Below are positions 2,863-51,566 of a DNA stretch of 64,000 nucleotides, piece by piece. Made by a program: the position numbers and the translations under genes. The DNA is from Malacoraja senta (Eukaryota): NCBI GenBank assembly GCA_038087875.1, contig CM075991.1:10914001-10978000 (forward strand), read 5' to 3'. The notes beneath the pieces were generated by a model. That model was given only the letters and a program-made list of their open reading frames with translations. It was not told where the DNA came from and did not search any database. The first letter of the stretch is position 1. Each line of letters begins with the position of its first letter.

Positions 2863-3400
2863 AAGTCAAGTCAAGTCACATTTATTTCTATAGCACATTT
2901 AAAAAACAACTCTCGTTGGCCAAAGTGCTTTACATTTGTTATAAGAATAGCACAAACTAAACAAACTACATACATATATACATGTGTTAAAGAAGGAACT
3001 GCAGATGCTGGAAAATCGAAGGTACACAAAAATGCTGGAGAAACTCAGCGGGTGCAGCAGCATCTATGGAGCGAAGGAAATAGGTAACGTTTCGGGCCGA
3101 AACGTTGTCTGAAGAAGGGTTTCGGCCCGAAACGTTACCTATTTCCTTCGCTCCATAGATGCTGCTGCACCCGCTGAGTTTCACCAGCATTTTTGTGTAC
3201 CTACATATATACATGTAGCCCTCACGCAGAGGACGTCAGGAAAGGCTTGGGAGTATAGATAAGTCTTTAGTCTTGACTTAAAAGAGTCGATGGAGGGGGC
3301 AGTTCTGATGGGAAAGCGGGATGCTGTTCCACAGTCTGGGGGCTGCAACCGCAAAGGCGCGGTCGCCCCTGAGCTTATGCCTAGACCGTGGGATATTCAG
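2863..3400 (-). mobile_element. L2-like LINE 3' fragment interrupted by a palindromic insertion
   Basis: (AAGTC)n tail followed by TTTATTTCTATAGCACATTT...CAAAGTGCTTTACA, typical of reverse-complemented L2 3' ends. Confidence 0.5.
2986..3201. mobile_element. Palindromic Penelope-type hammerhead-motif insertion with 15-bp TSD
   Basis: TACATATATACATGT at 2971-2985 and 3202-3216; inverted arms around CTGAAGAAGGGTTTCGGCCCGAAAC. Confidence 0.75.
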
Positions 3401-16200: not shown

Positions 16201-16345
16201 GTGATTAAAGTCTCCTAACGCCAGCACAACCGCGTCTGGATTGGAATTCTCCACCTCCATGGTGTGATCGGCCAGTTGCTGCAACGCAGACGGAGCTGAG
16301 GTGCTCGGTGGTATGTAGACAGCGGCCAGGATGATGGAGGATTAA
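13247..16345 (-). mobile_element. Rex1/Babar non-LTR retrotransposon, 5'-truncated, split by a Harbinger MITE
   Basis: ORF 14605-16284 has partial APE (GDFN, SDH) and RT (LNDYRPVALT, DFSSAFNT, GAPQG, FADD). It continues at 14035-13478 (KELVVDFRK...LLPSGRRYRS) with one in-frame stop at ~13703; (TCTTGAA)n tail. Confidence 0.92.
14037..14641. mobile_element. GC-rich non-autonomous PIF/Harbinger element (MITE)
   Basis: TTA TSD (14034-36, 14642-44); imperfect TIRs AAGGCCTGTCTCAC / GTAAGACAGAGCCT; removal restores the Rex1 frame ISKTKELVVDF. Confidence 0.85.
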
Positions 16346-18022: not shown

Positions 18023-20178
18023 GATCTCTGGTGCTGTAAGTCAGCAAATCTACTGCTGCGCTGCCCTTGGGTTTTCTCAGGGTTCTCCAGTTTCTTCCCA
18101 CATCCCAAAGTCGTGCAGGTTTGTGGGTTAATTGGCTTCTGTAAATTGTCCCTGGTGTATGGGAAAAAAACGGGTGATCTTGGTGGCGTGGACTCGGTGG
18201 GCCGAAGGGCCTGTTTCTATGCTGTATCTCGAAACTAAACTAAACTGGTGGATAATAGGGTCTGGTGGGGAAAGAGGAGAGAAAGTCAAACAATGATCGG
18301 AGAATGGGCAAGTATGGCAAGTGCAGCAATTCTTCACAACTAAGACGTAATCAGTCAATTAATGCTCAAACAACAGGTTCCACATGAGAAATGTATTTGT
18401 CACTGTTGCTATTGACAGACTGAACCTGTGTTTTCTCAAGAACACAGCAAAAGACAGCATGAAACGGTTCCTTTCTGCAATATTCAGAGATAGACACTCA
18501 GCAGATGTGATACTCAGAGTAAGTGGATTATTTCATAGCATCCAAATTACAAATCTTGCAGACACTTGGCACAGTGTAGCATCCAGCACAGTGATGGAAG
18601 GCTGGATACAGGAGCCGGTGTCCAACTGATACAATATCTACACTTACTGAAGTAATTCCAGATCCTGCAAAATAGATCTCAGTAGTGAATGCCAACATGC
18701 TGCTTAATAATCCTTATCAACACTAAATGCTGGAGTAACTCAGCGGGACAGGCAGCAACTCTGGAGAGAAGGAATGGGTGACGTTTCGGGTTGAGACCCT
18801 TCAGCTTGAGTTACTCCAGCATTTTGTGTCTACCTTTGATAGTAAAGAGAATGAATATCAGTTGTGGACGAAAATGCTGGAGAAACTCAGCATTTTCAGA
18901 CTAGTCATTTTCTTCTCTCCAGAGATGCTGCCTGTCCCACTGAGTTACTCTAGCATTTTGTGTCTATCTTCAGTTTAAACCAGCATCTGCATTTCCTTCC
19001 TACACAATAAACCTTCAAGTAAATTTCTGGAGTGTGGGAGGAAAACTGGAGCACCAACACGGCCACATGGAGAACGTACAAACTCCGTACAGACAGCACC
19101 CGTAGTCAGGATCGAACCCAGGTCCCTGGCGCTGTCAGGCAGCAACTCTACCGCAGCGCCACTGTGCAAGGCAACATCTTAAACCACCACTGGCAATCAA
19201 TAATTATAATATTACATCCAGTGGCAGTGTTTGTGTTAAGGTCTACACTCTTGCCAAATGCATAATCCCATTTTGCAATCAATCTGATCTATCACGTTCA
19301 ATATTGCTGCAGAAATTCATCTGGTGCACTCATATAACGCCAGAGAAGGAAGATTGTGTTTAAGAAGGAACTGCACATGCTGGAAAATCGAAGTTAGACA
19401 AAAATGCTGGAGAAACTCAGCGGGTGAGGCAGCATCTATGGAGCGAAGGAAATAGGCAACGTTTCTGGTCAAAACCCTTCTTCAGACAACATTCTTCAGG
19501 GGAACATTGTCTACCCCAGACACACCATACAGTTGACTATTATCAGTTTAGTTTGTGGTCACATGTACCGAGGTACAGTGAAAAGCTTTTGTTGCGTGCT
19601 ATCCCGTCAGCGTAAAGACAACACATGATTACAATCGAGCCATTCACAGTGTACAGATACATGATAAGGGAATAACGTTTAGTGCAAGGTAAAGCCAGTA
19701 AAGTCCAATCAAAAATAGTCCAAACGTCACCAATGAGGTAGATAGTAGTTCAGGAGTGTTTGAGGACAGAGGCATGTGTGTGTAGTTCAGCGGCAGTTAG
19801 GACATTGTTGATACTGTACTGTAAAGTGCCGCGGTCTCCGGGGAGGAAGCGGCCGCTCCAGACATTCCAAGCCACTGAGGAGTGTTCACCCGACGCCGTG
19901 CTCCACCTCCCCGGCAAGAGGGCCTGAAGCATCGGGCTGCTGTAGCAGCGACTGCGGAGGCCACAATGGGCCCGACTATGGGTGAACAGGGGACGGGACG
20001 GGACTGGACTTTGCTGCCTTCCCCCACAGTGGGAACCATTGTGGGGGGATGTTTTTATGTTTATTGTTAAATTATTTAATGTTGTGTCTTATCTTTATTC
20101 GCGTGCTGCAATGGCAAGTCAAATTTCACTGCACCAATTGGTATATGTGATAATAAGTGTCCTTTGTATCCTTTGAAA

Positions 20179-20424: not shown

Positions 20425-21134
20425 TAACAAAACCGTGGTTGATACGAGGGGCCTAATCTAATCAGACTTCAAGCCTTCAGCATCAGAGGAAATTAAAAAA
20501 ATATTGTTTAAACCGTACTCAAATTAACACCTTTCTTGCCTAGTCATTGGCATATACATCAAACGCCTTTAAAATTAATCCTGGACTCATAGAATTAATT
20601 AGCTACATTCATTTAAACAGAACAAATTATATAAATGGCACATTAATGGAAAATTAATGACGGTTGTCGCTTTCCTGCCTCCGATGATGAACAGCATCTG
20701 AAACTACTGCTGGCAATTAATAATTATAATCTTACAGCGAGTGTCACTGTTTGTTCGAGGGTCTACTTTCTCGGCAAACATGTATTCCCATTTTGCAATC
20801 AATCTGATGATGCATATTCCATATAGATCGCTCCCGCAGACCAAAAAAAGGATTGTAACCTGATATGAGGAACGATATTGTACTCGGTGGAGTTGCTTTA
20901 TGGAGCTCTCACTTTCAGGATTACTCTTCTGGGTGTCGTTGTTTGAGACCAGCACACGATGGTGGATTTCTGTTTGGTATCCACCAGTTTGCAAACCTCC
21001 CCGTCCACATTCTACTCCACAGGTCGATTCTCATTCCATCTTCTGCCTCTCACACCAGCCATTTAACACCAGCAGTAGATATGTCGACTGGTAATAAAAT
21101 AATGTAGCTGCAACCGACATAATTCCCTGGCCAC

Positions 21135-22050: not shown

Positions 22051-24164
22051 GGTCATTGTAAAACACTCCTAGGCCCATGTTGAAGACTGCTGGTGTTACA
22101 ACATAAGTCCGTAATTTTATCTACTATGAATGGAATTAAAGTTTAAAAAACGTCTCTCCCTAAAGCTTGCACCTCGTTACATCCCTGGTGCCTGCGAGGT
22201 GCAATTTCATGAGGTGTTAATGTTATTACTTGTGATAATGAAATTTTTGGTTCCTGTGAGCACGACTCGGGAAATTCATTGCTATTGATCCGTCCTCTGT
22301 CTGTGACGTGAAGACACACAGACCAGGCTCTGAAACTAATGAGACAACATTGCACTCCGTCTCAATGCCGAGATAAATCTGCGTCTTTCTCCTGCTGTGT
22401 AGGAAGGGACTGCGAATGCTGCTTTAAACCGAAGATAGACACAAAAAGCTGGAGGCACTCAGCGGGTCAGACAGCATCTCTGGAGAAAAGGAATAGGTGA
22501 TGTTTCGGGTCTGAAGAAGGGTCTCGACCTGAAACGTCACCTATTCCTTCTTCCCATCCCTCTCCCTTCCTAGGTACACAAAAATGCTGGAGAAACTCAG
22601 CGGGTGCAGCAGCATCTATGGAGCGAAGGAAATAGGTAACGTTTCGGGCCGAAGCCCTTCTTCAGACTTTGTCCTCTCCCTTCCCAGTTCTCCGACAAGT
22701 CTGACTGTCCCCTGATTATATTTTATCTCTGTCTGCTTCATTCTCACCTTCTAGCTAACAATGATCTATTCTAAATTTTCTTTGAACCACATCTCCTTTA
22801 ATGTCTCATTTTCACACCTTACTCTTCCTTATCTATGTGCCTTCAGTCTGAAGAAGGGTCTCGACCCGAAACGTCGCACACTCCTTCTACCCAAAGATGC
22901 TGCCTGACCCACTGAGTTACTCCAGCATTTTGGGTCTATCTTCGGTGTAAACCAGCATCTGCAGTTCCTTCCTGCACATTAGAAACATTTCAAACCTGTG
23001 TCGTCCCACACCAGAATCAAGATCCTGCAATCACTGGAGTGCAGTGTGCAGTCAATGCTTGTTTGTGTTTGAGCATGTTCGTTCTCTAGTCCTAGTTCAA
23101 TGTGTTACGGAGCAACACTTGCATCACCCTGACACACCCCATCAACCTCAGTTCAGCAGTTTAGGTGCGAATGGCCTACATCTGTTCCTATTTCTAATAT
23201 TCTGATATATTTTCCTCGGTAAGTTGATTGGACATACCTCGCAGGTCCAGCAAACACCCTGAAGAAACCCTGGAAGTGCTCGGATTTAAAAAAAAAAGCT
23301 CTTCCATCCCCCACAAGACCGTTGTATGCAGTTGGGTTTTATCGCAGTGGCGCTGCCTAACTACGCCAGCATGGAAACAGGTCCTTCTGCCCACCGAGTC
23401 CACGCCGACCAGCGATCACCCACACACCAGTTTTTTCCCCACACACTAGGGACAATTTACAGAAGCCAATTAACCGACAAACCTGCATGCCTTTGGGATG
23501 TGGGAGGAAACTGGAGAAACCAGAGAAAACTCATGGGCTGCCTTACAGCGCCAGAGACCCAGGTTCGATCCTGCCTACGGGTGCTGCCTGTACATTCTCC
23601 CTGTGACCGCGTGGGTTCTCTCCAGGTGCTCTGGTTTCCTCCCACACTCCTGAGACGTGCAAGCTTGTAGGTTAATGGGCTTCTGTAGAGTGTAAATTGT
23701 CACCAGTGCGTATGACAATGCTCGTGTACGGGGTGATCGCTGGTCGGCGCGGACTCGGTGGGCCATAGAACCTGTTTCCGTGCTGTATCTCTAAAAGTAA
23801 TGCATGGTGGATGTTTATGTTAAATTCTATTGTGTATTGTGTGTTCTTTATTTAAGTGTATCGCTGCTGGCAAATTCATTTCACTGCACCTTTGGGTGCA
23901 TGTGACCAATAAAATTGACTTTGACTTTGACATGATAAAGGAAACAAAGTGCAGAAAATGGATGTGCAGCCACAGGGAAAATGCAAGGGCCACACCAAGG
24001 TAGATAGTGAGAAGGACCGACAGGCCTGTCTCCACGCTGTATCTCTAAAGTCTAAAGTCTATTCAGTATCTCCCCAAGTAGACAATGGAATCTACAAGGA
24101 AATAAGTCCAGGTCCAGGACAATGGAGAACCACCTCCCCCATTCCTTGCTCAATGGTGCCAGAT

Positions 24165-27577: not shown

Positions 27578-28324
27578 CCTCGGTACACGTGACAATAAAC
27601 TAAACTGACCTGAATGGTCATATCATTCTTATTACACCACGGTCGTGATGGGCCAATCTGTCCCCTTCTATGATGTCAAGTTCCTCAGCTTCCATATGAA
27701 CATTACCAGCCACTTTAATAAACATGTACTAATTAAAGAAAGCCATGTACAGATTTGTAAAGCAGAAATCACGTTTGATTAACTTGCCAGGTGCGTTTAT
27801 TGAGAAGATGAAGGCAGGTAATCTGCATAATGATTTAAATGGATATCGACTTATTAAAAGTTTATTAACGTTTCTTTGTTAGCAAGTTGAAGCGTGTCAG
27901 ATCAAAGTGCAGTGTTGGGATCCCAGCTATAAATTTGAGATGCTTAAAGATTAGCTGAGATGCTGTGAAAGGAGAACATGAAATAAAATTCATGAAATAA
28001 AGCTGGGTTTGCTAAACTAATTCATGGTCAACGAAGCAAAACTGGAAGTAATAACTGAGTTATTACGGTCAAGAGATTCCCATTGATGACATTGGACTTT
28101 CCTGGTGAGGTTTTTGTGCTTTCCTGCAGAGTCACCATCTTCTCTGAGGGAACAGGAGAATGTAAAGTTCAGTCAGCAATCCTAGGCCAAAACCTGTCTC
28201 ACAGCTTATCATGGAACCTGGCCACACAGCTGCTCTGCACACTGACATAGATACATAGATACATAGACAAGTCAAGTCAAGAGAGTTTATTGTTATGCAG
28301 TGGGCTGCAGCCATACATTAGTGG

Positions 28325-28667
28325 GAGTCACGGTGGCACAGCGGTAGAGTTTCTGCCTTACAGCGCTTACGGCGCTCAGCGACCCAGGTTCGATCCCGAC
28401 AACGGGTGGTGTCTGTACGGATTTTTTTAAAACAAAACGTAGTTTGTACTTTCTCACCGTGACCGCGTGGGTTTTCTCCGAGATCTTTGCTTTCCTCCCA
28501 CACTCCAAAGACGTACACAGGTTTGAGGGTTAATTGGTGTCAATGTATAGGGTCCCTGGTGTGTGTAGGGTGGTGTTAATGTGCGGGGATCGCAGGTCGG
28601 TGCGATGCAGAAGGGCCTGTTTCCATGCTGTATCTCTAAGCTAAACTAAAAACCAAACTAAACTAAA
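28325..28667 (+). mobile_element. tRNA-derived V-SINE (HE1-like)
   Basis: A/B boxes, V core and (CTAAA)n tail. Confidence 0.8.
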
Positions 28668-28939
28668 TTAGCAATGCCACCACGCTGGCCAAGCACGACA
28701 CTTGTCTGTTTAGAATTTCATCTGCTGCTGTCCTTCGCTGCCCCTGGAGTTACGGCAAGAGAAATAAATGGCGCTGGAGAACATAGAAACTCCGCACAGA
28801 TAGCACCCGTAGTCAGGGTCGAACCTGGATCTCTGGCAATCTAAGCAGCAACTCTACCATTGCGCCACCGTGCTTCTGTAGAAGTTGATAAGAGTCATTC
28901 ATTTCCTTAGTCTCCTGAGGAAGGAGAGGCTTTTTCGGC

Positions 28940-29500
28940 CGTAACTCCTGTGTGACGTGGTCCTGTGGTCCACAACGGCCAAGTTGGCGTACGTTGTGGA
29001 ATTGACAGTTCCATGGGAAGATGGTGTTGAAGAAGCTTATGAGAGGAAAAAAGACCAAGTACTCTGAACTGGCAACTGAAGCTTCCCAGAATGGCTGGAA
29101 GACCAAGATGTTCCCTGTCGAAGTGGGATGCAGGGGATTTGTTGCTACATCTATGACCAGGCTATTAAAGAAAATGGGGGTGAGGGGTCGCTCCCTCCAA
29201 CAAGCAATCAAATCATTATCAAATTCTGCAGAAAAAAACAGCAATTGGATTTGGATCAGAAGGAGAGACAACAATTGGGCTGCAAGATGAAGACAGGAGG
29301 GTATGGAATTGAGGTGGGTGTAACTGGGACGCCAGGTATCATCGTTGAGCCCTCTGGAGACGTTGTGGGCTTATCAATGAAACGTCAAAGAAGGAGGGTG
29401 CCCAGCTGATGACCTTTCACCACTCCAATCCCACTGCAAATAGCAAGATTGCCGACTTATTACAGGGATTGAAACATCAAGTCCTATTAGCTCTACTTCT
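28940..29500 (+). mobile_element. Hero-clade (restriction-like endonuclease) non-LTR retrotransposon 3' end
   Basis: Reads DVVLWS...VVELTVPWEDGVEEAYERKK, then after a frameshift in an A-run TKYSEL...GW...FPVEVGCRGF...WIWIRR, stop at 29290. Confidence 0.8.
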
Positions 29501-32500
29501 GATGTGAACAAAGCCCATGACTTAGTTGTTAATTAATAAGATGTTGTGGAAGTTACAGCGCTGACAATCGCACTGACGGAATGTCTACTGAACAGCTGGA
29601 GGAAAGCGACGCCACCAAGGTTTCCTGACTCGTTTCCCTCTGTGCTGCTTTGAGAACCCTCCTTTGATCACCGGCCCTGTGCTTGGAGGAGAAGCATACT
29701 AGTTGTCACTTTTTTTAATTGAATGCAAACAAGGGAGAATCATAGAGTCAGTGACTCAAACTTCACTGTACTTTAATTGGCACTTGTGACAATTAAATTG
29801 AATCTTGAATCTTGAATCTTAAATCATTTAGCATAGAAATAGGCCCTTTGGCCCAACTTGCCCACGCCAACCAACATGTCCCCATCTACACTAGTGCCAC
29901 TTGCATCCTTTTGGCCCATATCCCTCTAAACCTGTCATAAGGTCATAAGATCATAAGGAATAGGAGTAGAATTAGGCCATTCAGCCCATCAAGTCTACTC
30001 CGCCATTCAGTGATGCCTGACCCAGCTCTCCCTCCTAACTCCATTCTCTTGCCTTCTCCCCATAAGTTCAAGTTCAAGTTCAGATTTATTTATCACATGC
30101 ACCATAAGGTGCAGTAACATTTTATTTACCTCCGACACCTGCACTAATCAAGAATCTATCTATCTCTGCCTTAAAAATATCCACTGACTTGGCCTCCACA
30201 TCCTTCTGTGGCAAAGAATTCCACAGATTCACCACCCTCCGACTACAGAAATCACTCCTCATCTCCTATTGTCCTCTCCACAGTTGTATTCATTGTACAA
30301 TCAGTGTATTTCCCCCCCGGATTACAGATCTTGTTCGTTGGAAGTTCAACGAAGGACGATAAGTCACGCGCATCCGTTCCCCCTGGAGAACCAGCCAAGG
30401 TCAAGGCGACAAATTTCCCTCTCTGTATCCAAGTTACCTGCGCTCAATCCACCGCATCTCGCAACAGTTGTCGTTCCATGCCTTGAGGTCCACATTCGCC
30501 CACATGCGCCGGCACCTGCAGATCTACGCTCTGCCTCTCCTGCAGCTCCGGGCCCCACTCACCCAGAAAAGCAATGGACCTCGACTTCCCTTCATCCTCC
30601 ACACATCTCCTCCAAACTTTGTCCCTCTCACCTCCCATCCCAGTCAACCCTTTTGTTGTTAAGCCCAGGGGAGGGCTATCTGCCTGCGGAATTCAACTTG
30701 AATAGTTTAGTCTTAGTTTAGTTTAGAGGTGTATAAGATCATGAGGAATAGATAGGATCCAGAGTAGGGGAATCAAGAACCAGAGGACATAGGTTTAAGG
30801 TGAGGGGGGAAAGACTTAATAAAATCTTTTACACAAATGTTGGTAGGTGTATGGAATGAGCTGCCAGAGGAAGTAGTTGAGGCTGGGACTGTTACAATGT
30901 TTAATAAACATCTGGACAGGTACATGGATAGGATAGGTTTAGAGGGATATGGGCTAAACGCAGGTAGGTGGGACTAGTCTAGATGGGGCATGTTGGTCAG
31001 CGTGAGCAAGTTGGGGTGAAGGGCCTGTTTCCACACTGCAAACTCTTTGACTATGACTCTCTATACCTAGGGGGTCACTTTGGGGCAGGCTTGGCCTGGA
31101 TAGGCAGGTGAGTTGTAGGGATAGGCACCAAGCACTTCAGGTGACCAAAATAACATTGCACACTGGGATGTTATGTTTCCTACTGCACCATCTGGGTGAA
31201 ATAAAGTCAAAGAGTAAAATAGGACATAGATTCCGTAGCCCACCCCATCCACGCCAACCATTGCACTCATCTCTACCAATTCAATTTACCCACATTAAGT
31301 AGCCTTCTATACCGTGGAAATTCAAGTGCTTCTCTATGGAGTCACAGCATTATACGTTGACTTAGTTGGGGGGTTCTCTTTCAACGTCCAGGATTAGAAT
31401 GAGTTCATGCACTGAACAAGCCCTCATGACGTCCATTCATAAATGTTCAACACTGCGTGGGCAGATTTGCCAATTACATTCTTCAATGTGTTCAGAGATA
31501 CAGCGCGGAAACAGGCTCTTCGGCCCACCGAGTCCGCGCTGACCAGCGATCCCCGCATATTCACACTATCCTACACACACTAGGGACAATTTACAGTCTA
31601 CAGAATCCAATGAACTTACAAACCTGTACGTCTTTGGAGCGTGGGAGGATACCGAGGATCTCGGAGAAAACCCATGCAGATCACGGGGAGAACGTACAAA
31701 CTCCATACAGACAGCACCCATAGTCAGGATTGAACCAGGGTCTCTGGCGCTGTGAGGCAGTAGCTCTACCACCTTACCTCCCTGTTGCAGATAAAACTTG
31801 ATGACTTGATGACATGGCAGATAAAAATATTACACTTTTAGTCTTTTTCGGTCCAAGTTTTTAATCCAGTCCATTGTTCAGTAAATCACAACTGCCCTGC
31901 AGAACTTCAATTCCACTATATTATTAACTCATATATCGCACTTTGAATTTTTATTTCAGTAGTATGTCAATGGTGCGTAACCAAATGGAGGAGGAATAGT
32001 TTAATACTCTGATGACTTTCACACTCAGCTTCTTAATATTATATTCAGTTAGTTCTTGTGTTGTACACTTGCAGAGTGTACAGTTCACAACCGGCAGCCT
32101 GATATTGATTATTAAGTGGTCATTCATAATAGCTACCTAGGGAAAATGTTCCATATATACTCACAACGTTGATTTAAACTGCAGTCCTGTTTATCTAAAT
32201 ATCAGTAATGGCTCTTGGCTGCTCAATGCCCAATATTACAATCGATAAATTCATAATTCACAGGAGCAGAATTAGGCCATTTGGCCCATCGCGTCCACCA
32301 TTCAATCATGGCTGAACTACCTTTCCCTCGCAGCCTTTTTTCAGACTGTTCACAGCCTTTTCCCCTGGGTAGAGGATTCTAAAACTAGCGGGCACAGGTT
32401 TAAGTTGAGAGACAATCTCTGCCTTCTCCCCATAACATTTGACACCCTGGGACAGGCAGCATCTCTGGAGAGAAGGAATGGGTGACGTTTCGGGTCGAGA

Positions 32501-33296
32501 CTCTTCTTCAGCATCTTGTGTCTAACTTTGGTTTAAACCAGCATCTGCAGTTCCTTCCTTCACATTTGACACCCTTACTAATCAAGAATCTGTCTCCCTC
32601 TTAGGCCTTCTGAGCACCTTTGAGCACCGTTTGAGCACCTTACCATTAACATCGCATGCAAAGAAAACCATTCAGCCCATTGTGTGTGTGCTGGTGCATT
32701 AAAATGCCTGTGCTGGCTGCTTGGAAGAGTTATCTAGTCTCAGGCCCTGTTTTTTCCCCACAGTTGAACAATATCCTTTTAAAACCACTTCTCTGGTCTG
32801 AAGAAGGGTTTCGGCCTGAAACGTTGCCTATTTCCTTCGCTCCATAGATGCTGCTGCACCCGCTGAGTTTCTCCAGCACTTTTGTCTATCTCTGGTTCAT
32901 CCATTGTGTCTGTTTGTGTGCCTCAAGGGAAATCTCATTTCCTCTCTAATCTTGTTGCTGATATTTCAAACCTGAAACTTGGCTACCTCCTCTCGCATGG
33001 TTGCCAACTTGTTTGGCAGGTGAACTATTTTCTCCGCCTCCTCTATCAGAACCCTGCAAGCCACCTTCCTTTCACCTTCTCATCTCTTCCAATCTGCCCA
33101 CAGGGCTGAAATCCATTGTTCCGGGCATTATTCAGGTAAACATTCGCCTTCGCCAAGACATGCTTCCTCGGGAAGGCTGCCCAGTTTCATTCATTGGGCT
33201 ACAGGCCTAACTGGTGATATTACCAGGACATCTTTCTTTGGCTGCTCAAAGCCAATGTTTCATTGGCAGCCTCCCATTTGCTTTCTTAAGTAATCT

Positions 33297-33592
33297 GGGC
33301 CGGCACGGTGGCGCAGCGTTAGAGTTGCTGCCTTACAGCACCGGAGACCCAGGTTCGATCCTGACTACGGGTGTTGGCTGTAAGGAGTTTCTACTGCATG
33401 GGTTTTCTCCGGGATCTCCGGATTCCTCCCACACTCCAAAAGTGTAGTTTGTAAGGTAAATTGGCTTGGTATAATTGTAAATTGTCCCTAGTGTGTGTAG
33501 GATAGTGTTAGTGTGCGGGGATCGCTGGTCGGTGCGGACTTGGTGGGCTGAAGGGGCCTGTTTCTGCGCTGTATCGCTCAACAAAACTAAAG
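33297..33592 (+). mobile_element. tRNA-derived V-SINE (HE1-like)
   Basis: GGCACGGTGGCGCAGCG...GGTTCGATCC head and the family 3' tail. Confidence 0.8.
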
Positions 33593-33769
33593 CAAACTTC
33601 CTAGTTAGAAACAACGAGCTGCAGAGACTAGTTTACAGAAGAACTGAGTGCTGGGGTAGCTCAATGGGTCAGGCAGCATCTTAGGAGACATGGATAAGTG
33701 ACGTTTCGGGTCAGGATACTTCTTCAGACTGATTCCCATTTGGATTGGGACCCTTCTTCAGCCTGATTG

Positions 33770-34330
33770 TCACAGCACACCTCTACTTCCTGAGAAGGCT
33801 TAGGAAGTTCGGCATGTCCCCACCAACCCTCGCTAACTTCTACAGATGCACAATAGAAAGCATGTTATCGGAATGCCTCACATCATGGTTTGAGAGGTTC
33901 TCCATCCAAGACCGCAAGAAATTGCAGCAAATTGTGGACGCAGCCCAGACCATCACGCAAACCAACCTCCCTTCCATTGACTCCATCCACACTTGATGCT
34001 GCCTCTGCAAGGCCACCAGCATAATAAAGGGGGTGGAAGATTGCAACCTTCACCCTGTTTCGACTAATGCAATCAACTCGACGTGCACAAACGGAAGATC
34101 AAATAGAACAAGTTGTCCAACAACTTAAGGCTGTGCACGCCACACGGAAGAAGAAGAAGAAGCATAATCAAGGACCAGTCTCACCCTGGTCACTCCCTCT
34201 TCTCTCCTCTCCCATCAGGCAAGAGTTATGGAAGTTTGAAAACCCAGCTGTTATCAGGCAACTGAACTGTCCTCTCACCAACCAGAGAGCGACCCGGACC
34301 TGCCATCTACCACATTGGAGACCTTTGAAC
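33770..34330 (+). mobile_element. Rex1-type LINE 3' fragment (interrupted by copy 3 of the ribozyme retroposon)
   Basis: ORF 33745-33996 has LYFLRRLRKFGMS...FYRCTIES...LQQIV. Confidence 0.8.
34030..34160 (+). mobile_element. HDV-like-ribozyme-headed short retroposon, copy 3 (small deletion in the ribozyme)
   Basis: TSD AGCATAATAAAG / AGCATAATCAAG; (GAA)n tail. Confidence 0.8.
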
Positions 34331-35100
34331 TATGTATAATCTTTTCACTGTACCTTGCACAGGTGACAATAATAAACTAATCTAAACTGAATGAGGCATA
34401 AAACGTTGCCTATCCATGTTCCCCTGAGATGCTGCCTGACCCGCTGAGTTACTTCAGTACTCTGTGTCTTCATACTTATCCCTATTAAACTGGTCACGTG
34501 GCTTCTCAGTTTATCAATCTCCCGAAATCCATCCAAAATTCACGACCATCACGTTCAATCTCTGCTCGGTTGCTGAGATTTGCAAGGTCTACACATGTCA
34601 AGACTTGTACTCACTAAACTAGACAAGCCATTTGTATATTACAAGAGAACCCAAAGACCTAACACTAATCTCCACTGCATATTTCTGCTTCGTCAGACAA
34701 AAAACACATGTATTCATTACATTTTGCCACGTCCTATATCTAATCATTTCTAAGAACGCAGAACAGTGCAACACAGGAACAAGCCTCTCAGCCCACAATG
34801 TCTGTGGCAAATGTGATTCCAGTTCCAGGATCTTGACCCAAAATGGTGTATGTCCATTCCCTCCACTAATGCTGCCTAGCTACTCATTTTCCTCCAGCAT
34901 GTAGTGTTTTACTTAACTACCCAGCATCAACAGCTTCTTGTTACTCTCTTCCTGCCTGTTTATGCGCTTGTCTAAAGGCCTCTGAAACATTTAGACACAA
35001 ACCTCTCGCTGAGGTCCAACTACTGATTCATAGTGTGTAGGAAGGAACTGCAGATGCTGGTTAATACACTAAAGGACACAAAGTGCTGGAGTAACTCAGC

Positions 35101-35449
35101 AGAACACAGAGAACATGGATATGTGACCATTCTGGTTGAGAACGGTCCCGACCCAGAACGTAAGTAAGAATTTCATTGTTCTATCTGGGACATATGACAA
35201 TAAAACACTTTTGACTCTTGACATATTCTCCAGAGATGCTGCCTGACCTGCTGCTCCAGCATTTTGTACCCTTTTGCCTCTTAAACATTGCTATTGTTAC
35301 ATCTGCTTTCATATGCTAAATTAAATATTTTACATGGTACTTCATCAAAAGTCATTCCCCATGTCCACATCTGACCCGTAGTCAGGATCGAACCCAGGAC
35401 TCTGGCACTGTGAGGCAGCAACACTACCACCGTGCCGTCCTTGAATGAA
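35101..35449 (+). repeat. 349-bp direct duplication, left copy (flanks L1)
   Basis: Appears identical to 42088-42436. Confidence 0.95.
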
Positions 35450-35643
35450 CACACTTCCGGTTGCGACATGCTCTGCTAGCAGTCGCAAATTTTTTAGCTC
35501 CGCTGAAAAAATCGCGATTTTTCGCGTTAAAATCGGGTCTGGAGGTCGGGACCGTTTTTAAAAACTTACCGGAGCTTCATGTCGCGGTGCTGATGACGTC
35601 ATCAGTAAGCGCCGCGATTTTAACGGAGGGAAAGTCATTTTAA

Positions 35644-36639
35644 ATGAAAAGTACATCTCCAGGTCAGAGCCCACAGAGGAAAATCTCAAAACATCTGCTA
35701 AAGACTCTGGAACAGCAAGAAACTTCAGAACTGACCTCTGGAGAGGTCTCTGGAATGGCTACTCGATCTGCAAAAGAGAAAACCGAAATGGAGGACTTAA
35801 GAAACTCGGTAAGAGATATCAAAAATGATATGGAAGCTGGGAACAGTAAATTGATAGCCGGTAATGATAAAATACTTGAGGGTATTGAGGCTCTCCAAAA
35901 AAGAATTGAAGGTGTGGAAAAAGGACTATCGATAAAAATTGAAAAGGTGGTAGAAGAGACCACAAAGATGTTTGAGGCTGTGCACGAAACTGTGGCTGCA
36001 AATGCATCTGCAGTGAATGATTTGGAAGCTGCTGTGGAAGTGATGGCTGGAGAGATGCAGACTATGAAGTCAGAAATAGATAGTCTCAAGAACCAAGTCA
36101 CAAAGGTTTCGAATAAATGTGTTGACCTAGAAGCTCGCTCAAGACGTCAAAATATAAGAATACGTGGTGTAAAAGAGGGAGCTGAGGGGGACAATGTTTG
36201 TGAGTTCGCTGCCAACCTAATTAAACACGTACTGAAGCTACCAGAAGTACCTGTAATTGAAGTAGCACATCGACTCCCCAGATTTAAATCAAGATCTCAA
36301 GGAGAACGTGCCTACCCACGACAGATCATAATTAAACTTCGGGATATCTCAACAATGGAAGCGCTGATGAAAAAAATCAACCACGGAGAGAAGATGATGT
36401 ACAGAGGTGATACTATTAAACTCCTACGGGACTACCCTTATGAGATTGAGCAAAAGAGAAGAAAGTTCTCACAGACCAGAGAAGTTCTTTATGGTGTTAA
36501 GGGAGTTTTGTGTGGAGTGTTTTACCCGGCTAGAATGCGTATCACCTTTGAGGGAGTGTCAAAAACATTCACTAATTCGGATGAATCTCTCAAATACGCT
36601 CAAGAAATCGCGACTAAGGCTGCATCAACTGGAGACTGA
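35644..36639 (+). CDS. L1 ORF1p (coiled coil, RRM, CTD)
   Basis: 331 aa; heptad region followed by DLEARSRRQNIRIRGVKEG, IEVAHR, PRQIII and YPARMRI motifs. Confidence 0.93.
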   Translation: MKSTSPGQSPQRKISKHLLKTLEQQETSELTSGEVSGMATRSAKEKTEMEDLRNSVRDIKNDMEAGNSKLIAGNDKILEGIEALQKRIEGVEKGLSIKIEKVVEETTKMFEAVHETVAANASAVNDLEAAVEVMAGEMQTMKSEIDSLKNQVTKVSNKCVDLEARSRRQNIRIRGVKEGAEGDNVCEFAANLIKHVLKLPEVPVIEVAHRLPRFKSRSQGERAYPRQIIIKLRDISTMEALMKKINHGEKMMYRGDTIKLLRDYPYEIEQKRRKFSQTREVLYGVKGVLCGVFYPARMRITFEGVSKTFTNSDESLKYAQEIATKAASTGD

Positions 36640-37858
36640 AAACCAAGACGACATGAACAAATGAACTTGCTTATTCTTCCAACAAGAATATCACAAGGAA
36701 AGTGAATTAACTGAACACTGATTTTTTATTTTTTATTTGACTTCAAGCAACAGATTCTTAGTGAGACGTGGCTAGACATTATTATCTTCGCTGGAACATT
36801 GTGCTATGTAATTCAAGGACACTACGTGCTCAAACGAGGAAAACCTGATAACGGGACGAACTGCTGGGCTGAGAGTGAAAAACATCACATGGCTTATATT
36901 GTTTATAAAAAACTGAAAAAACTGAGAACTAATAATAATTAACAATTAACAATACTAATATAGAAATAGCAATTGAAATAGATAAAAAATGTGCAGTCTG
37001 CTCTGTTTAGCAGATAACAGCAAGTGCTATGCAGCTCGAGAGTGGAGGGAGGGGGAGACCGGGTACCTGGCATAACTCCAGGAGCCAGACTCCCGTTAAC
37101 CCTTCCAGCGAACAGCTCATTTTTAACAATATTAAAATCAATTTAAAATAGTTAAGAGATAATATACACTCGAGGTTGATATGAAAAATATATACGGCTT
37201 ATATAGTTTTACAAAATGCTGAGAATTAATCATAATTAATAATTAACAATACTAATATAGAAATAATATTTGAAACTGATAAAACTGTGGTGCCTGCGTC
37301 ATAACGCAGACAGCAGTTATCACCTATGTTCGCAGCTCGTGGAGAGGAGAAGAGATCAGGCACCTGGCACAATTCCAGGAACCTGACTCCGGTTAATCCA
37401 CTCAGTAAACCGCTCACTTTAACAATACTAAATTCATTTTAAAATAGTTAAGAGATAAAGAGTGAGTAGGATATGGAATCGAATACATTTGACATATATA
37501 TAAATTGTAACTGGGTGAAATAGAACTGAATTGGAAACGGTAATGACCCCATAGATTTTGGGTAAGAAATACAGCGGGGCTAACTTTATACCAACTACGC
37601 CGGAAGCGTTATGGATGTCGTACCCCACAGACGAGTGGGCCACTCACTACGGTGTTGAAATTTTAGACACCGTAAATTTATTTGATTTATATATATATTT
37701 TTTTTTAATCACAATATGTCACATCTGTGTGTTTTTTCTTCAAGGACAATCGCGCAGGAGAACTACCAAGGAAGTCTATAATAGAAATACTCCCAAAATA
37801 ACCAGAGTCCGGAGGTATGAACGCACCACAATAATTAAGGTCATTAAAATTGGTAAAA

Positions 37859-40800
37859 ATGCATGACGACAATCAAAAGAAAATAGGAGGAATCACATTA
37901 TGTAGTTGGAATATAAGGGGGATTAATGAACCTATTAAAAGGGGCAAGATACTAGCTCAGTTGAAATCATACAACACGGACATAGCGTTTCTACAGGAAA
38001 CACATCTTAAACAGCAAGATCAGACAAGACTGAGGGCGAACTGGATAGGCCAAACATTTCACTCTTCATTTACCTCTAAATCTAGAGGTACTGCAATTAT
38101 TATTCGTAAAGGAATTCCATTTAAACCAAAGAACACTATTTTAGATAAGGAAGGGAGATATCTTATAGTAGCAGGGGAGATCAATAATATGCCAATCACG
38201 CTGGTAAACATATATGCGCCCAACTTTGATAACCCTCAATTTTTTAATAAAATTCTGAATATAATTGCAGAATCTAATTATCAAAATGTTATAATCGGAG
38301 GAGATTTTAATTGTGTTTTAGATCCTTATTTAGATAAATCGATGCAAAAACAAAAAGGTCAGACGAAATCTAAAACCAGTGAACTCTTACACACATATAT
38401 GGAAAACACAAATATAACAGATGTATGGAGGATTGCAAACCCGACGGGAAGGGATTACTCGTTTTATTCAATGGTGCATAAAACATATTCACGGATAGAC
38501 TATTTTCTAGTGGATACAAAATTAATTTCGCAATCTTTGAATCCTAAATATCATATTAATGCGATCTCAGATCATTCTTCGTTAACTTTTGTTCTAAAAC
38601 TAGAAGGAATGTCTATGAATAAACCGTTCTGGAGGTTTAACTCACAAATTTTAAAAGACCCTCAAGGGAGTATCTATCTAAAAAAACAGATGGATCTATT
38701 TTTTGAGTTAAATGATACACCAGAGATATCCCCCACGTTATTATGGGAATCCTTCAAAGCATTTATAAGAGGAGTCATTATTTCATTTCAAGCTTATCAA
38801 AATAAAAAGAATAAGAATGAACAAAGACACTTAGAAGATCAAATAAAACAGTTAGATATAGATAATGCTAAAGACCCAACTATGGATAAACATAATAAAA
38901 TACTACTACTGAAATTTCAGTTAAATAAATTACTGTCAGAGAAAGTTATAACATTATTTCAAATCACAAAACAAGAACACTTCGAATTCGGGGACAAACC
39001 CCACAAACTTCTAGCACGACAACTTAAAAAACGGGAAAAAGAGAATGCAATATTAAAGATTAAATCAGATAGAGGGGAAGTATTAACACTACCCAAGGAT
39101 ATTAATAAAAGATTTGCTCAATTTTACCAGAATCTATACACATCTAAAACGTCAATAGACAATAATAAAATCTCAGAATTTTTAGATAATTGTAATCTAC
39201 CACAATTAGAACGCAGGGAACAAGAGGAACTGGGAGCACAAATTACTTCTAAGGAGATAGAAGACACAATAAAAACACTAAAAAATGGAAAAACACCAGG
39301 ACCAGACGGATTCAGTAATGAATTTTATAAATCTTTTTATGATATAGTTACTCCACGATTACAAAAAATGTATACATATGCTTATAAAGAGCAAAACCTA
39401 CCTGAAACACTAGCGGAATCAACGATCATATTAATACTTAAAAAAGATAAAAATATAGAAGAACCAGGATCATATAGAGCTATTGCTTTGTTAAATACGG
39501 ATCAGAAAATAATAGCAAAAACATTAGCCAATAGATTAAGCAAGTATGTTAGTAGACTAATACATGAGGATCAAACAGGATTTATACCTAAGAGACACTC
39601 ATTTAATAATTTGAGACGTTTGCTTAACATAATGCATTCACATAAATCTTATGACCAAGAGTTAGCTATCATCTCACTGGACGCAGAAAAAGCGTTTGAT
39701 CAAGTAGAATGGGACTATATGATCAAAGTATTGCAAAAATTCCAATTGGGAGAAAACTTTATTGCATGGATAAAACTACTATATAACAAACCTACGGCTA
39801 GAATACTAACTAATAATATATTATCTTCAAAATTCGAATTATCTAGGGGCAACAGACAAGGATGTTCACTATCACCGCTGTTATTTGCTTTGGTAATTGA
39901 ACCCCTTGCTGAAAAAATAAGAACACACTCGAATATTCACGGTTATAACACAAAATATTCAAACAACAAACTATCCCTATATGCTGATGATGTACTACTG
40001 TACATCACAAAACCACAAATTAGTATACCAAATATATTAAACTTAATTGAGGACTTTGGATCCTTTTCAGGATATAGAATAAATTGGAACAAAAGTGAAA
40101 TTATGTCGATTAAACCAAAAGATTCAACACATCTCAGGAAATTCCCTTTTAAAATAGCTATGGAAAAATTCAAATATTTAGGAATTGAGATTACTAGAAA
40201 TTACCATGATATGTTTAAAGCTAATTATAATCCCCTACTTAAGAAATTAAATAATCTGATTAAATTTTGGAAAACACTTCCGATGTCCTTAATAGGTAGG
40301 ATAAATGCTATAAAAATGATTTTCTTACCACAAATCCTTTACCTATTTCAATCAATACCTATATATCTCCCAAAAAAGTTTTTCAAAAAACTGGACTCAG
40401 ACATTACAAATTTTATATGGGATTACAAATCCCACAGAATACAAAGAACACACCTTAACAAACGAAAAGAGTTGGGGGGTCTAGCGCTCCCTAACTTTAT
40501 GTATTATAACTGGGCAGTAAATATTAAAAATATGATTCACCTGCTGGACAATTCTGCCCAGCAGGTGGACTGGATTATAATGGAAAAAGGGGATTGCTCC
40601 CCGAATAATATAGGAGCGATTATTCTCTCTCCAATAAACTTGAATAATAAAAATTATAATAAAAATCCAATTATATATAGCACTATTAGAACATGGAAGC
40701 AAATAAAACAGAATCTAAAATTAAGAAACCTATCTCTCTTAATACCAATAGTCAATAACCCATCGTTTAAACCTTCAATCATAGATAAAGCATTTATACA

Positions 40801-41650
40801 ATGGGAAAGAATGGGAATTAAAACGCTCGAAGATCTGTATGAATTAGAAAAATTACTATCATTCCAACAACTACAACTGAAATATAATTTGAAAAATAAT
40901 CAATATTTTAAATATATACAAATCTGTGACTATTTGAAAACACACACAAAAGATTATTATAATATGCCTTCCGACTTACTAGATGAAGCAATGAAGACAA
41001 AGGCGGAATCAGTTAATTTAATATCATACTTATATAATATCATCTTAAATATAGAAATACCCACAACAGATGGAATTAGAAGAGATTGGGAACAAGATCT
41101 AGGTATAAAAATTTCAAAAGAGAGTTGGGATAATCATTTATTACAGGTGCATAAATGCTCGATCAACGTACGACATACGCTTATCCAATTTAAAACATTA
41201 CATAGATTATATTATTCAAAAACCAAACTAAATAAAATCTTTCCTAACGTCTCACCAATCTGTGATAAATGTATATGTCAAGAAGCTACCATAGCACATT
41301 CTTTTGTTTTTTGTACAAAAATCCAAAAATTCTGGTTTGAAATATTTGATATTTTTTCAAAATTAATCAAAATAAAACTGGTACCAAAACCAGAATGGAT
41401 TATTTTTGGAATATCGGAAGGTATTCCTGAATTAAACGTGTATCAGAAGAATTTACTCAATTATGGGCTAATAATGGGAAAAAAGCTTATACTTAAATTC
41501 TGGAAAAATGCGCCCACACCAACAATAAAAATGTGGACATCAAATATGTTGGAAACATTACATCTGGAAGAGATGAGATTCCTCCTAGTAGGCAAAGTAG
41601 ATCAATTTCAAAAGACGTGGTCTACGTTTTTGGACCTATTACAAGCATGA
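37859..41650 (+). CDS. L1 ORF2p (APE endonuclease, reverse transcriptase, CCHC)
   Basis: SWNIRG, LQETH, GGDFN, SRIDY, SDH; PGPDGF, LDAEKAFD, RQGCSLSP, YADD; CDKC...H...C. No stops; first ATG at 37859. Confidence 0.97.
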   Translation: MHDDNQKKIGGITLCSWNIRGINEPIKRGKILAQLKSYNTDIAFLQETHLKQQDQTRLRANWIGQTFHSSFTSKSRGTAIIIRKGIPFKPKNTILDKEGRYLIVAGEINNMPITLVNIYAPNFDNPQFFNKILNIIAESNYQNVIIGGDFNCVLDPYLDKSMQKQKGQTKSKTSELLHTYMENTNITDVWRIANPTGRDYSFYSMVHKTYSRIDYFLVDTKLISQSLNPKYHINAISDHSSLTFVLKLEGMSMNKPFWRFNSQILKDPQGSIYLKKQMDLFFELNDTPEISPTLLWESFKAFIRGVIISFQAYQNKKNKNEQRHLEDQIKQLDIDNAKDPTMDKHNKILLLKFQLNKLLSEKVITLFQITKQEHFEFGDKPHKLLARQLKKREKENAILKIKSDRGEVLTLPKDINKRFAQFYQNLYTSKTSIDNNKISEFLDNCNLPQLERREQEELGAQITSKEIEDTIKTLKNGKTPGPDGFSNEFYKSFYDIVTPRLQKMYTYAYKEQNLPETLAESTIILILKKDKNIEEPGSYRAIALLNTDQKIIAKTLANRLSKYVSRLIHEDQTGFIPKRHSFNNLRRLLNIMHSHKSYDQELAIISLDAEKAFDQVEWDYMIKVLQKFQLGENFIAWIKLLYNKPTARILTNNILSSKFELSRGNRQGCSLSPLLFALVIEPLAEKIRTHSNIHGYNTKYSNNKLSLYADDVLLYITKPQISIPNILNLIEDFGSFSGYRINWNKSEIMSIKPKDSTHLRKFPFKIAMEKFKYLGIEITRNYHDMFKANYNPLLKKLNNLIKFWKTLPMSLIGRINAIKMIFLPQILYLFQSIPIYLPKKFFKKLDSDITNFIWDYKSHRIQRTHLNKRKELGGLALPNFMYYNWAVNIKNMIHLLDNSAQQVDWIIMEKGDCSPNNIGAIILSPINLNNKNYNKNPIIYSTIRTWKQIKQNLKLRNLSLLIPIVNNPSFKPSIIDKAFIQWERMGIKTLEDLYELEKLLSFQQLQLKYNLKNNQYFKYIQICDYLKTHTKDYYNMPSDLLDEAMKTKAESVNLISYLYNIILNIEIPTTDGIRRDWEQDLGIKISKESWDNHLLQVHKCSINVRHTLIQFKTLHRLYYSKTKLNKIFPNVSPICDKCICQEATIAHSFVFCTKIQKFWFEIFDIFSKLIKIKLVPKPEWIIFGISEGIPELNVYQKNLLNYGLIMGKKLILKFWKNAPTPTIKMWTSNMLETLHLEEMRFLLVGKVDQFQKTWSTFLDLLQA

Positions 41651-42087
41651 GGTGCAATAGTAATTTAGAAAAACAAATAAATAAATAAAAGGTATCTGGA
41701 CCTGGTAATGGGAGGTAAAATAAAAATAGACTTGGTTGGTAGTTCCTTCTCTATGAAGTATGGTATAAGAGTCATAATAGAGCGATTGTTCCTTCTTTCT
41801 TTCTCTTTTTTTTCTAGGGTCTATTTTCTAACTTTACTTCCTTCTCTAACCTCTTTTCTAAGGGGCTTTCTTTTCCCAACACTCTTTTGCACTTCACAAC
41901 CTTTGCGCACTTTCTTCACTTTTCTTACTTCTTTCTTTTTCTTTCTTAAAGTTTAAAAAAGTGAAGCGGTACAAAAAATGTATTAATATATACGTGTTGT
42001 ACATTACTGTAATCTACCGTACTTCTAAAAAATAAAAAAAAAAAAAAAAAATAAAAAAAAAAAAATAAAAAAAAAATAAAAAAAAAA

Positions 42088-42436
42088 AGAACACAGAGAA
42101 CATGGATATGTGACCATTCTGGTTGAGAACGGTCCCGACCCAGAACGTAAGTAAGAATTTCATTGTTCTATCTGGGACATATGACAATAAAACACTTTTG
42201 ACTCTTGACATATTCTCCAGAGATGCTGCCTGACCTGCTGCTCCAGCATTTTGTACCCTTTTGCCTCTTAAACATTGCTATTGTTACATCTGCTTTCATA
42301 TGCTAAATTAAATATTTTACATGGTACTTCATCAAAAGTCATTCCCCATGTCCACATCTGACCCGTAGTCAGGATCGAACCCAGGACTCTGGCACTGTGA
42401 GGCAGCAACACTACCACCGTGCCGTCCTTGAATGAA
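42088..42436 (+). repeat. 349-bp direct duplication, right copy
   Basis: Starts immediately after the L1 poly(A); matches 35101-35449. Confidence 0.95.
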
Positions 42437-43314
42437 GTTATTAATGAATATCCAATGTGTAGGAAGGAACTGCAGATGCTGGTTTAAACCGAAGACAGAC
42501 ACAAAAAGCTGGAGTAACTCAGCGGGTCACACAGCATCTCTGGAGAAGAGGAATGGGGAAAAGAGAAAAAATAGCTCCACTCCGAAGAAAGGTCTCGACC
42601 CATAACGTCACCGATTCCTTCTCTCCAGAGATGCTGTCTAACCCGCTGAGTTACTCCAGCTTTTTGTGTCTTTCTTCAGTGAATATCCAAGACCTCCAAA
42701 AGAGATCTTTGCAGGTCTACAAATCACACCTTCCAATTAAGTAGCTACACTTTCCTTTCTCTAATGAAGGACCGTAATGAAAGACTTCTGGAACTTCAGA
42801 TAAATGATGTGCACCAGAATAGTTTGCATGTGATTTCAGCACCTCTTCAAAAAAAAAAAAAAAAAATCAGATATGTCAGGTTTTGAGCTGTAATCTTAGA
42901 TCAATGCTGGCTCATTCCAATCAGTATAAAGCTCAATGTAGTCAGGCACTCTATAGTTTTGCAGTAATGGACTTTGTCTATAGTTTCCTGTTTTGCTGCT
43001 GCCTGCATCCTTAAATAGCAGAAAGACATGTACAGCTTTCCAAGATGAAGCACTGGCTCCAGAAGCAAGGGGACTTTTATCTTGACCTTGACCTCCAGGC
43101 CATGAGGTCCAGCTGTAAGCCTTCAGAACTCTTGCAATAACAAGGAACTGCAGATGCTGGTTTATACCAAGCATAGGCACAAAGTACTGGAGTAGCTCAG
43201 TGAGTCAGGCAGCATCGGTGGAGAACATGGATAGGTGACGTTTCGGGTCAGGACCCTTCCTCAGACTTTGTCTTTCAGACTCCTTCATCACTCTTTGTGG
43301 TCTGAATAAATCCA

Positions 43315-49688: not shown

Positions 49689-50507
49689 TAAGGCAGCAAC
49701 TCTACCGCTGTGCAACTGACCCTTGGCACCAGACCACAGTACACTTGGCAGCAGATTGCTTCACCGAGAGCGAGGAGGGGCCTGCGAGCGTAGGGAACCA
49801 CCGAGAGCGTAGGTGGACTGTCGAGAGCGAGGTGGGCCGTTGAGAACGAGGGGGGACACGGTGAGGGGCCGCCTGCTGCCACATGAGGTGGCCCATGGTA
49901 GGTGGCAAATATGAGAGTTCAGTGACCTTTGTCAGTATCGTGGCAACACTATTGCACTACGCGGTGTCCACGGGGACTTTGGAGGCCTTCCGTAAACGCT
50001 GATCGCCACGGGAAGTCGAGTGTTTTGTTGATAAAGTTGGCGTCATATTAATTTGATGATCATTTGCTTGTAAAACTGTAAAGATAGGCAGTATTTGATT
50101 GTGTTAATTTGTATGTTTATCTTTATTTTTTGAATAAAAGTATTTGCATAATGAGAAAAGAGGTGAGGTCCGCTGTATGATTTTGCCGCGTTACATGCAA
50201 AACAAAGCATTTCACTGTACCTCGGTATCACTGAATTGAATCATAGAATTTCCCAGCCTGGAGTTCCTCTTGCGGAACCTGTCAGTCAGTATGTCAGCTC
50301 AACAAGATCCCAACTCGAGCCTAACTTACCCTATCCCTGGTGCTCAAGTTAAGCCCCTGCCCCAGTTTCACGACCTAATTCGCGACCTCTGACGACCTTA
50401 AACAACCTAAAAAAACAAGGTCGCGGTAACCTACGACTTCCTACGACCTTCCACGACTATGAGTACGACCTCCTACGGCCTTCCACGACTATGTCTGCGA
50501 CCTCCTG

Positions 50508-50962
50508 CGACTATGTTGAAGACCTCCCACAACTGTTGAAGACCTCCCACGACTATGTTGAAGACCTCCCACGACTATGTTGAAGACCTCCCACGACTAT
50601 GTTGAAGACCTCCCACGACTATGTTGAAGACCTCCCACGACTATGTTGAAGACCTCCCACTACTATGTTGAAGACCTCCCACAACTATGTTGAAGACCTC
50701 CCACGACTATGTTGAAGACCTCCCACAACTATGTTGAAGACCTCCCACAACTATGTTGAAGACCTCCCACAACTATGTTGAAGACCTCCCACAACTATGT
50801 TGAAGACCTCCCACAACTATGTTGAAGACATCCCACAACTATGTAGAAGACCTCCCACCACTATGTTGAAGACCTCCCACCACTATGTTGAAGACCTCCC
50901 ACAACTATGTTGAAGACCCCCCACGACTATGTTGAAGACCTCCTTTGACTATGTTGAAGACT
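50508..50962 (+). repeat. 22-bp minisatellite (ACTATGTTGAAGACCTCCCACR), about 20 units, subterminal in the Harbinger element
   Basis: Directly visible tandem array with no spacers. Confidence 0.95.
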
Positions 50963-51094
50963 GGCTTCGACCATGTACGTTTTACTGCTGTTTGCAGTAG
51001 CCCTTTTGCTTCAGCAGCCTTTTAAGAAAGGCAGAAGGGGAAGAGCAAGGGTGAAGAGGAAGCAGAAGAAGAGGTCTCAATGGGTGAATGGAGA

Positions 51095-51212
51095 TGATGT
51101 GATGGACTGTCCCCGTACACCAGAAGACTGGAAGAGAGTGGCACTGGGCTTTGACAAAAGATGGAACTTTAAGCACACATGTGGGGCAGTGGATGGTAAG
51201 CATGCCATTCAT
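51095..51212 (+). pseudogene. Harbinger DDE transposase fragment
   Basis: MDCPRTPEDWKRVALGFDKRWNFKHTCGAVDGKH contains the first catalytic Asp motif of PIF/Harbinger transposases. Confidence 0.8.
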
Positions 51213-51566
51213 GTCCCTGTCCCTGTACCCCTCATTTTCCTTTTCGTACAGGATGGCATTCTGCTGGAACCATTCCTCAAGGTCCCCCTCCTGCTGCCTG
51301 GTGAAGGTGTAGGGCATAACCTTCCGCCAGCCCCCCCTCACCACCAATGGGGCATCTGCCTCTGATGCTGTGTCAGACACAGGAGAAAGGGCTGCTTTGC
51401 TGCCTTCAAATGAGGCAGTGAAGGATGGGGTGGTGGTGGGGACATATACTACCACCCTGCTCTCCTCCTCCAGGGGTCTCTCATGCAGGGCTACCTCCTC
51501 CTGCACTATCACCTCCTGTGGCATCACCTCCTGCCACTCCTCCTCCTGGGTGGGCAACACCTGCAT
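51213..51566 (-). pseudogene. Harbinger accessory Myb/SANT(MADF)-like protein fragment
   Basis: YTFTRQQEGDLEEWFQQNAILYEKENEGYRDRD resembles a Myb/SANT N-terminal half; convergent to the transposase. Confidence 0.6.

Follow-up and report, generated by a model that had tools for sequence, protein, structure and literature searches.

The 64,000-nucleotide stretch of Malacoraja senta DNA analysed here (NCBI GenBank assembly GCA_038087875.1, contig CM075991.1, positions 10,914,001 to 10,978,000 of the forward strand; hereafter the window) contains a full-length L1 retrotransposon of 6638 bp at 35450-42087, which lies between two identical copies of a 349-bp unit of host DNA. The parts of the element all lie on the plus strand. 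It begins with CAC followed by ACTTCCGGTT at 35453-35462, within a CpG-rich 5' untranslated region (UTR) of 194 nt (35450-35643, observed/expected CpG 1.75). Open reading frame 1 (ORF1, 35644-36639) encodes a 331-aa protein of the L1 ORF1p type that matches human ORF1p (2ykp, E 3.8e-6), and a Pfam search of ORF1 gave no match. An inter-ORF spacer of 1219 nt and 36% GC follows (36640-37858) and holds an internal tandem duplication of ~290 bp (36876-37162 and 37182-37458, 74% identity). ORF2 (37859-41650) is an open frame of 1263 aa in which Pfam domains and motifs mark an APE endonuclease, a reverse transcriptase (YADD at residue 708) and a C-terminal CCHC (1135). The frame carries the catalytic motifs SWN, LQET, IYAPN, GGDFN, YSRIDY, ISDH, YADD and CCHC, which we take to be the L1 ORF2 motif set, and it aligns with human ORF2p (8sxt) across residues 12-1257 (E 7.7e-188). 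Downstream of it lie a T-rich 3'UTR (41651-42026, 40% T) and an A-rich tail of 61 nt with four AATAAA (42027-42087), which ends at the right copy of the duplication; the A at 42088 possibly also belongs to the tail.

By its sequence the element is a member of the L1 clade of the fish type, the choice of L1 over Tx1 resting on similarity and anatomy and not on a reverse transcriptase tree. Its 5' terminus agrees at 10 of 12 bases with the zebrafish L1 terminal consensus, GGACTTCCGGTT (PMC5381506). Like the fish and frog L1s described by Boissinot and Sookdeo (2016, PMC5381506), it has a short 5'UTR beginning ACTTCCGGTT, two ORFs, a long AT-rich spacer, a T-rich 3'UTR, AATAAA and an A tail. It differs from the elements treated in the available parts of that work in the length of its spacer (1219 nt, versus 257-1032 nt in fish, frog and lizard L1s) and in its flanking duplication, which measures 349 bp whereas theirs are short (<10 bp).

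The two copies of the flanking unit, at 35101-35449 and 42088-42436 and both in plus orientation, agree at all 349 of their 349 bases. The match runs from 35101/42088 to 35449/42436 with no extension on either side, and the length of the duplication is 348-349 bp, since the first A can be assigned to the tail. When the 64-kb window was compared with itself, this pair was the sole long exact dispersed repeat; the runner-up was a stretch of 82 bp with 100% identity within a multicopy family, and ~42% of the window has a further copy elsewhere in it. The unit is pieced together from decayed host repeats. In a host repeat within it, the two copies share a deletion of 11 nt and an insertion of ~50 nt that are specific to this locus, and because this private decay is common to both, they derive from one locus and not from two members of a repeat family. 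The direct repeats abut both ends of the L1, the right copy touching the tail and the left copy ending 3 nt before ACTTCCGGTT, so that the ends of the duplication agree with both L1 termini to within 3 nt. The predicted structure of the duplicated strand is ordinary (z -1.17, with 11 of 100 shuffles equally good), and a hairpin-driven mechanism is thus unsupported. As a separate observation, the 5' junction of the L1 lies 9 bp upstream of the 5' end of a decayed short interspersed element (SINE) head on the minus strand (35374-35440), which we take to be tRNA-like from a B-box motif, and the two stand head to head (35374-35449). The window holds 17 other matches to this head, from which the chance of such proximity is ~0.3%, for an association spotted post hoc in a decayed copy.

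Which of the copies is native can be read from the repeat that crosses the left boundary. An old palindromic host repeat (35034-35290) starts upstream of the left copy and runs into it, crossing the boundary between 35100 and 35101 in register with six other copies in the window, and its 11-nt deletion sits 6 nt inside that boundary. In the right copy the initial 67 bp of this repeat are missing, and the A tail directly precedes that copy. The left copy is therefore the original target DNA and the right copy the derived one. An earlier note, made from the letters of this DNA, had described an intact L1 within a perfect 349-bp target-site duplication (TSD), with a left copy continuous with an upstream repeat and no 3' transduction. 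These points are borne out: both ORFs are open with their catalytic motifs present, aligning the copies gave zero mismatches, the host repeat spans the boundary in register, and transduction is argued against by the native left copy together with the fit of the duplication to the L1 termini.

The tail junction would place the first-strand nick on the bottom strand at 5'-TTCT/GCTG-3' (35097-35104, minus strand). Human L1 insertion sites tabulated in PMC5223499 include TTCT/a, TCTT/g and TTTT/g, and TT/AGAA is termed a near-perfect L1 site in PMC5932605. As judged from its bases, TTCT/G is a degenerate but ordinary L1 endonuclease site and not a perfect TTTT/AA. The nick context had earlier been regarded as atypical, a view that we do not uphold, as the bottom-strand 5'-TTCT/G-3' falls within the sites given in these portions of the two papers.

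Sequence data from outside the assembly bear on the left side of the locus and on the L1 family. A comparison of positions 28000-36000 with sequencing runs listed 24 runs, all as assembled contigs. Two of these (X19 and X20) are samples of one organism and contain 0.67 and 0.54 of the words of this region; they and two relatives (X21 and X1) were aligned at 88% likeness on 33500-36300, a region that has the left copy only. Contigs of X19 match the left flank over 613 bases, and those of X20 over 625 bases, with 0 differences; X21 differs from it at 43 of 614 bases and X1 at 52 of 597. In X19 the summed contig depth over ORF1 (35662-36300), which is not a copy number, is 3e4-9e4, compared with 22.6 on unique flank; in X20 it is 7e3-1.4e4, compared with 5.5, and in the two relatives it is 0-140. 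This contrast points to an L1 family that is abundant and lineage-restricted, and the family looks young. At 88% likeness the relatives reach depths of ~480-1560 over the 5' end of the L1 (35474-35661), which suggests that this part of the element is common to a related family in them. Protein relatives of ORF1 numbered 4 among 1654 candidates, the best at 74%, and neither the ORF1 nor the ORF2 protein had an exact match in the protein collection. Scanning metagenomes for a 20-nt pattern of the L1 terminus returned 0 matches, and scanning them for ORF2 returned 33 pattern matches, none of which was confirmed.

We consider it likely that the locus records one genuine L1 insertion whose 5' end was attached at a point 349 bp past the first nick. 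In such an event, ORF2p would have nicked the bottom strand at 5'-TTCT/G-3' (between 35100 and 35101), the A tail of the L1 RNA would have paired with the exposed TTCT, and the whole 6.6-kb RNA would have been copied. The end of the cDNA would have been joined to the top-strand 3' end at 35449, instead of one ~15 bp from the nick, and fill-in at either side would have completed the 349 bp between the ends. As proposed in PMC5223499, an unrelated nick in the same duplex probably supplied the distal end; alternatively, and with less probability, it may have been a broken sister-chromatid end during replication (cf. PMC7058536). The distant second-strand cleavage suggested in the earlier note is one of these two routes. 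Both yield the same product and sequence alone cannot separate them, and we favour the unrelated nick because the distance is short. Most likely this insertion is a rare exception within an L1 family that is young and abundant.

A number of points weigh against a single long-range insertion. At the second end, the top strand reads GAATGAA/GTT, which is no L1 endonuclease site, and the unit contains 10 sites at which a pyrimidine run meets a purine; L1's own nuclease therefore probably did not make the distal cut. Full-length L1 insertions in HeLa cells, as cited in PMC2912911, had TSDs of 10-17 bp in 6 of 6 cases. Short-read polishing might alone yield identical copies and open ORFs. No repeat spans the right end of the duplication, and the continuity seen at the left thus has no counterpart there. 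Finally, the listed contigs of the locus end at 35024-35056 in all four runs, short of the unit, and repeats (93,000-165,000 records per run) swamped the tables of joints and loose ends; no junction and no empty allele appeared among them, and this speaks neither for nor against the insertion.

These points leave room for explanations other than one insertion, of which an assembly artefact, whether by false duplication or by a switch of haplotype within near-identical L1 sequence at a polymorphic insertion, is in our judgement unlikely. Perfect identity is the expected outcome of a false duplication, the L1 family is highly repeated in this species, and the contig comparison provides no junction support. 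Yet the window is gap-free and contains no N bases, its left flank is reproduced without a difference in the contigs of two samples, and the duplication ends exactly at the L1 termini, as ordinary overlap errors would not be expected to do. A haplotype switch would further require two same-strand insertions within ~350 bp of each other segregating in one animal. Two independent L1 insertions 349 bp apart on homologous chromosomes could, through unequal crossing-over, have left a real chimeric L1 amid duplicated DNA. The resulting structure would be identical to that observed, and from guessed inputs (500-2000 full-length copies, 2500-10000 copies in total and a 3-Gb genome) 0.1-1.7 neighbour pairs are expected. 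Single events at 0.5-4% would, however, yield 2.5-80 long duplications on the same guessed inputs, and the neighbour pairs would need a crossover besides; we hold the crossing-over to be very improbable.

Still less credence is due to a circular product of retrotransposition, consisting of the L1 and 349 bp of target, that re-entered the chromosome by homologous recombination. The length of the unit is near that of two nucleosome repeats. Zorro3, a fungal element of the L1 clade, forms episomal products from RNA through a modified kind of target priming (PMC3510499). Such a route nonetheless requires an extra step, there is no sign of circles here, and a literature search tying long TSDs to nucleosomes and forks gave 4 papers, none of them using 'long TSD'. 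The least probable reading, to which we assign next to no weight, is that the duplicated 349 bp are part of the element itself, as terminal repeats or a transduced flank. Direct repeats flanking both ends are superficially like long terminal repeats, but the unit is made of decayed host repeats, the left copy is continuous with the upstream DNA and is not followed by an A tail, and the L1 terminus motif begins only after that copy. Because the left copy is native, a transduction and a terminal repeat borne by the element are both excluded.

If the locus is taken as a single insertion, the identity of the copies limits its age. Zero mismatches over 349 bases correspond to a divergence of at most 0.43% per lineage (95%), and adding the two open ORFs lowers the bound to 0.24-0.33%. 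The repeats of the window, which seem to be of the HE1/HER1 families listed for sharks and rays in PMC3747384, suggest a cartilaginous fish as host. Given a substitution rate of 1.6e-4 per site per million years and another some six times faster (PMC5499810), the upper bound on the age is 2.5-27 million years. The insertion had been called very recent in the earlier note; that it is young agrees with these data, while the stronger wording goes beyond bounds that allow divergences of 0.24-0.43% per lineage and such ages.

Long L1 TSDs in cartilaginous fish were not apparent in literature listings, a search whose scope excluded subscription papers and supplements. The nematode element Rte-1 is said to have a TSD of ~200 bp, for which a literature search returned no paper. 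The zebrafish long interspersed element (LINE) ZfL2-2 belongs to the L2 clade. When it was assayed in chicken DT40 cells (PMC2666801), a rare long TSD likewise arose in wild-type cells, 1228 bp in 1 of 25 insertions, although this is another LINE in a culture assay. The 349 bp found here lie outside the canonical range of short L1 TSDs, usually 5-30 bp (PMC5223499), and exceed the usual length some twentyfold. According to the same source, TSDs longer than 100 bp never exceeded 10% of L1 insertions in HeLa cells and made up 57-91% of them in lines deficient in nucleotide excision repair (NER). A close likeness is to the engineered human L1 of that study (Servant et al. 2017, PMC5223499), with duplications of 217-614 bp and larger, sites such as TCTT/g and a proposed unrelated distal nick; those were reporter insertions (~2-4 kb) in cultured, mostly NER-deficient cells, whereas ours is a natural full-length L1 in an assembly. 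In a tumour, one L1 likewise connects the two ends of a directly duplicated segment, and its 3' end has an endonuclease motif (PMC7058536), but that event was somatic, spanned 22.6 Mb and involved a short L1. Natural polymorphic HERV-K insertions have TSDs of similar size, 250 bp and 111 bp (PMC5488345), and arise by a retroviral integrase rather than through target-primed reverse transcription. Our preferred reading of the element described here is a naturally occurring full-length L1 whose TSD is unusually long, a further case of a rare kind that was already known.

In L1 insertion, cutting and joining at the second end still await an explanation, and longer TSDs in vivo are said still to need study (PMC2912911). 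Long TSDs had been suspected of being a peculiarity of cell lines, and a natural case, if real, shows that they can be inherited. A single case settles no mechanism; its value lies in prompting a count of long duplications across the L1 family. Repeats of 349 bp could also permit excision of the L1 by recombination, following a suggestion in PMC5223499. We think it quite unlikely that this young L1 family, or the host germline, produces duplications hundreds of bases long with high frequency, perhaps in steps the size of a nucleosome. Were this so, the family would offer a natural vertebrate system for the second-nick question and an L1 route to the duplication of host DNA, and surveys limited to TSDs of up to ~30 bp would have missed the long ones. 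As far as their accessible text describes, one genome survey counts TSDs of 5-25 bp only (PMC12016303), another those of 5-30 bp only, and a survey of more than 600 vertebrates those of <30 bp only (PMC13320814); the consulted parts of 10.1101/522623 and PMC5932605 likewise give short TSDs only, and PMC6466679 contains neither of two terms for TSDs.

Elsewhere in the window, two direct pairs, 19172/20692 and 61893/63451 (78-79% identity, enclosing 1.3-1.4 kb), were considered as long TSDs and rejected, for neither flanks a single retroelement. The first is an old 117-bp direct repeat (19172-19288 and 20692-20808, 79% identity) present in two copies in the window around 1.4 kb of mixed repeats, and is either an ancient duplication or a low-copy repeat. 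A Pfam search for host genes, covering 147 of 170 stop-to-stop segments of at least 75 aa and leaving short exons outside its scope, gave nothing above the cutoff besides two ALKBH8_N-type matches, which are probably retroelement remnants, and one reverse transcriptase. A second, different LINE lies on the minus strand (13706-16341), where a 578-aa open frame holds a reverse transcriptase (RVT_1, E 2.4e-28). An ALKBH8_N-type match falls in another frame downstream of it, and the element is not intact as one frame. At 50479-50961 lies a 22-bp minisatellite of 22 copies (93% matches), adjoined by a 194-aa ORF on the minus strand (50982-51566) with no Pfam match. To the right of the L1 duplication, a palindromic repeat is flanked by an 11-bp direct repeat seen by eye (42445-42455 and 42681-42691), an ordinary short TSD. 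A palindromic repeat family of ~230 bp has ~20 copies in the window, and since some short stretches are 97-100% identical between copies (for example, 3020-3101 and 22572-22653), part of this family may still be active.

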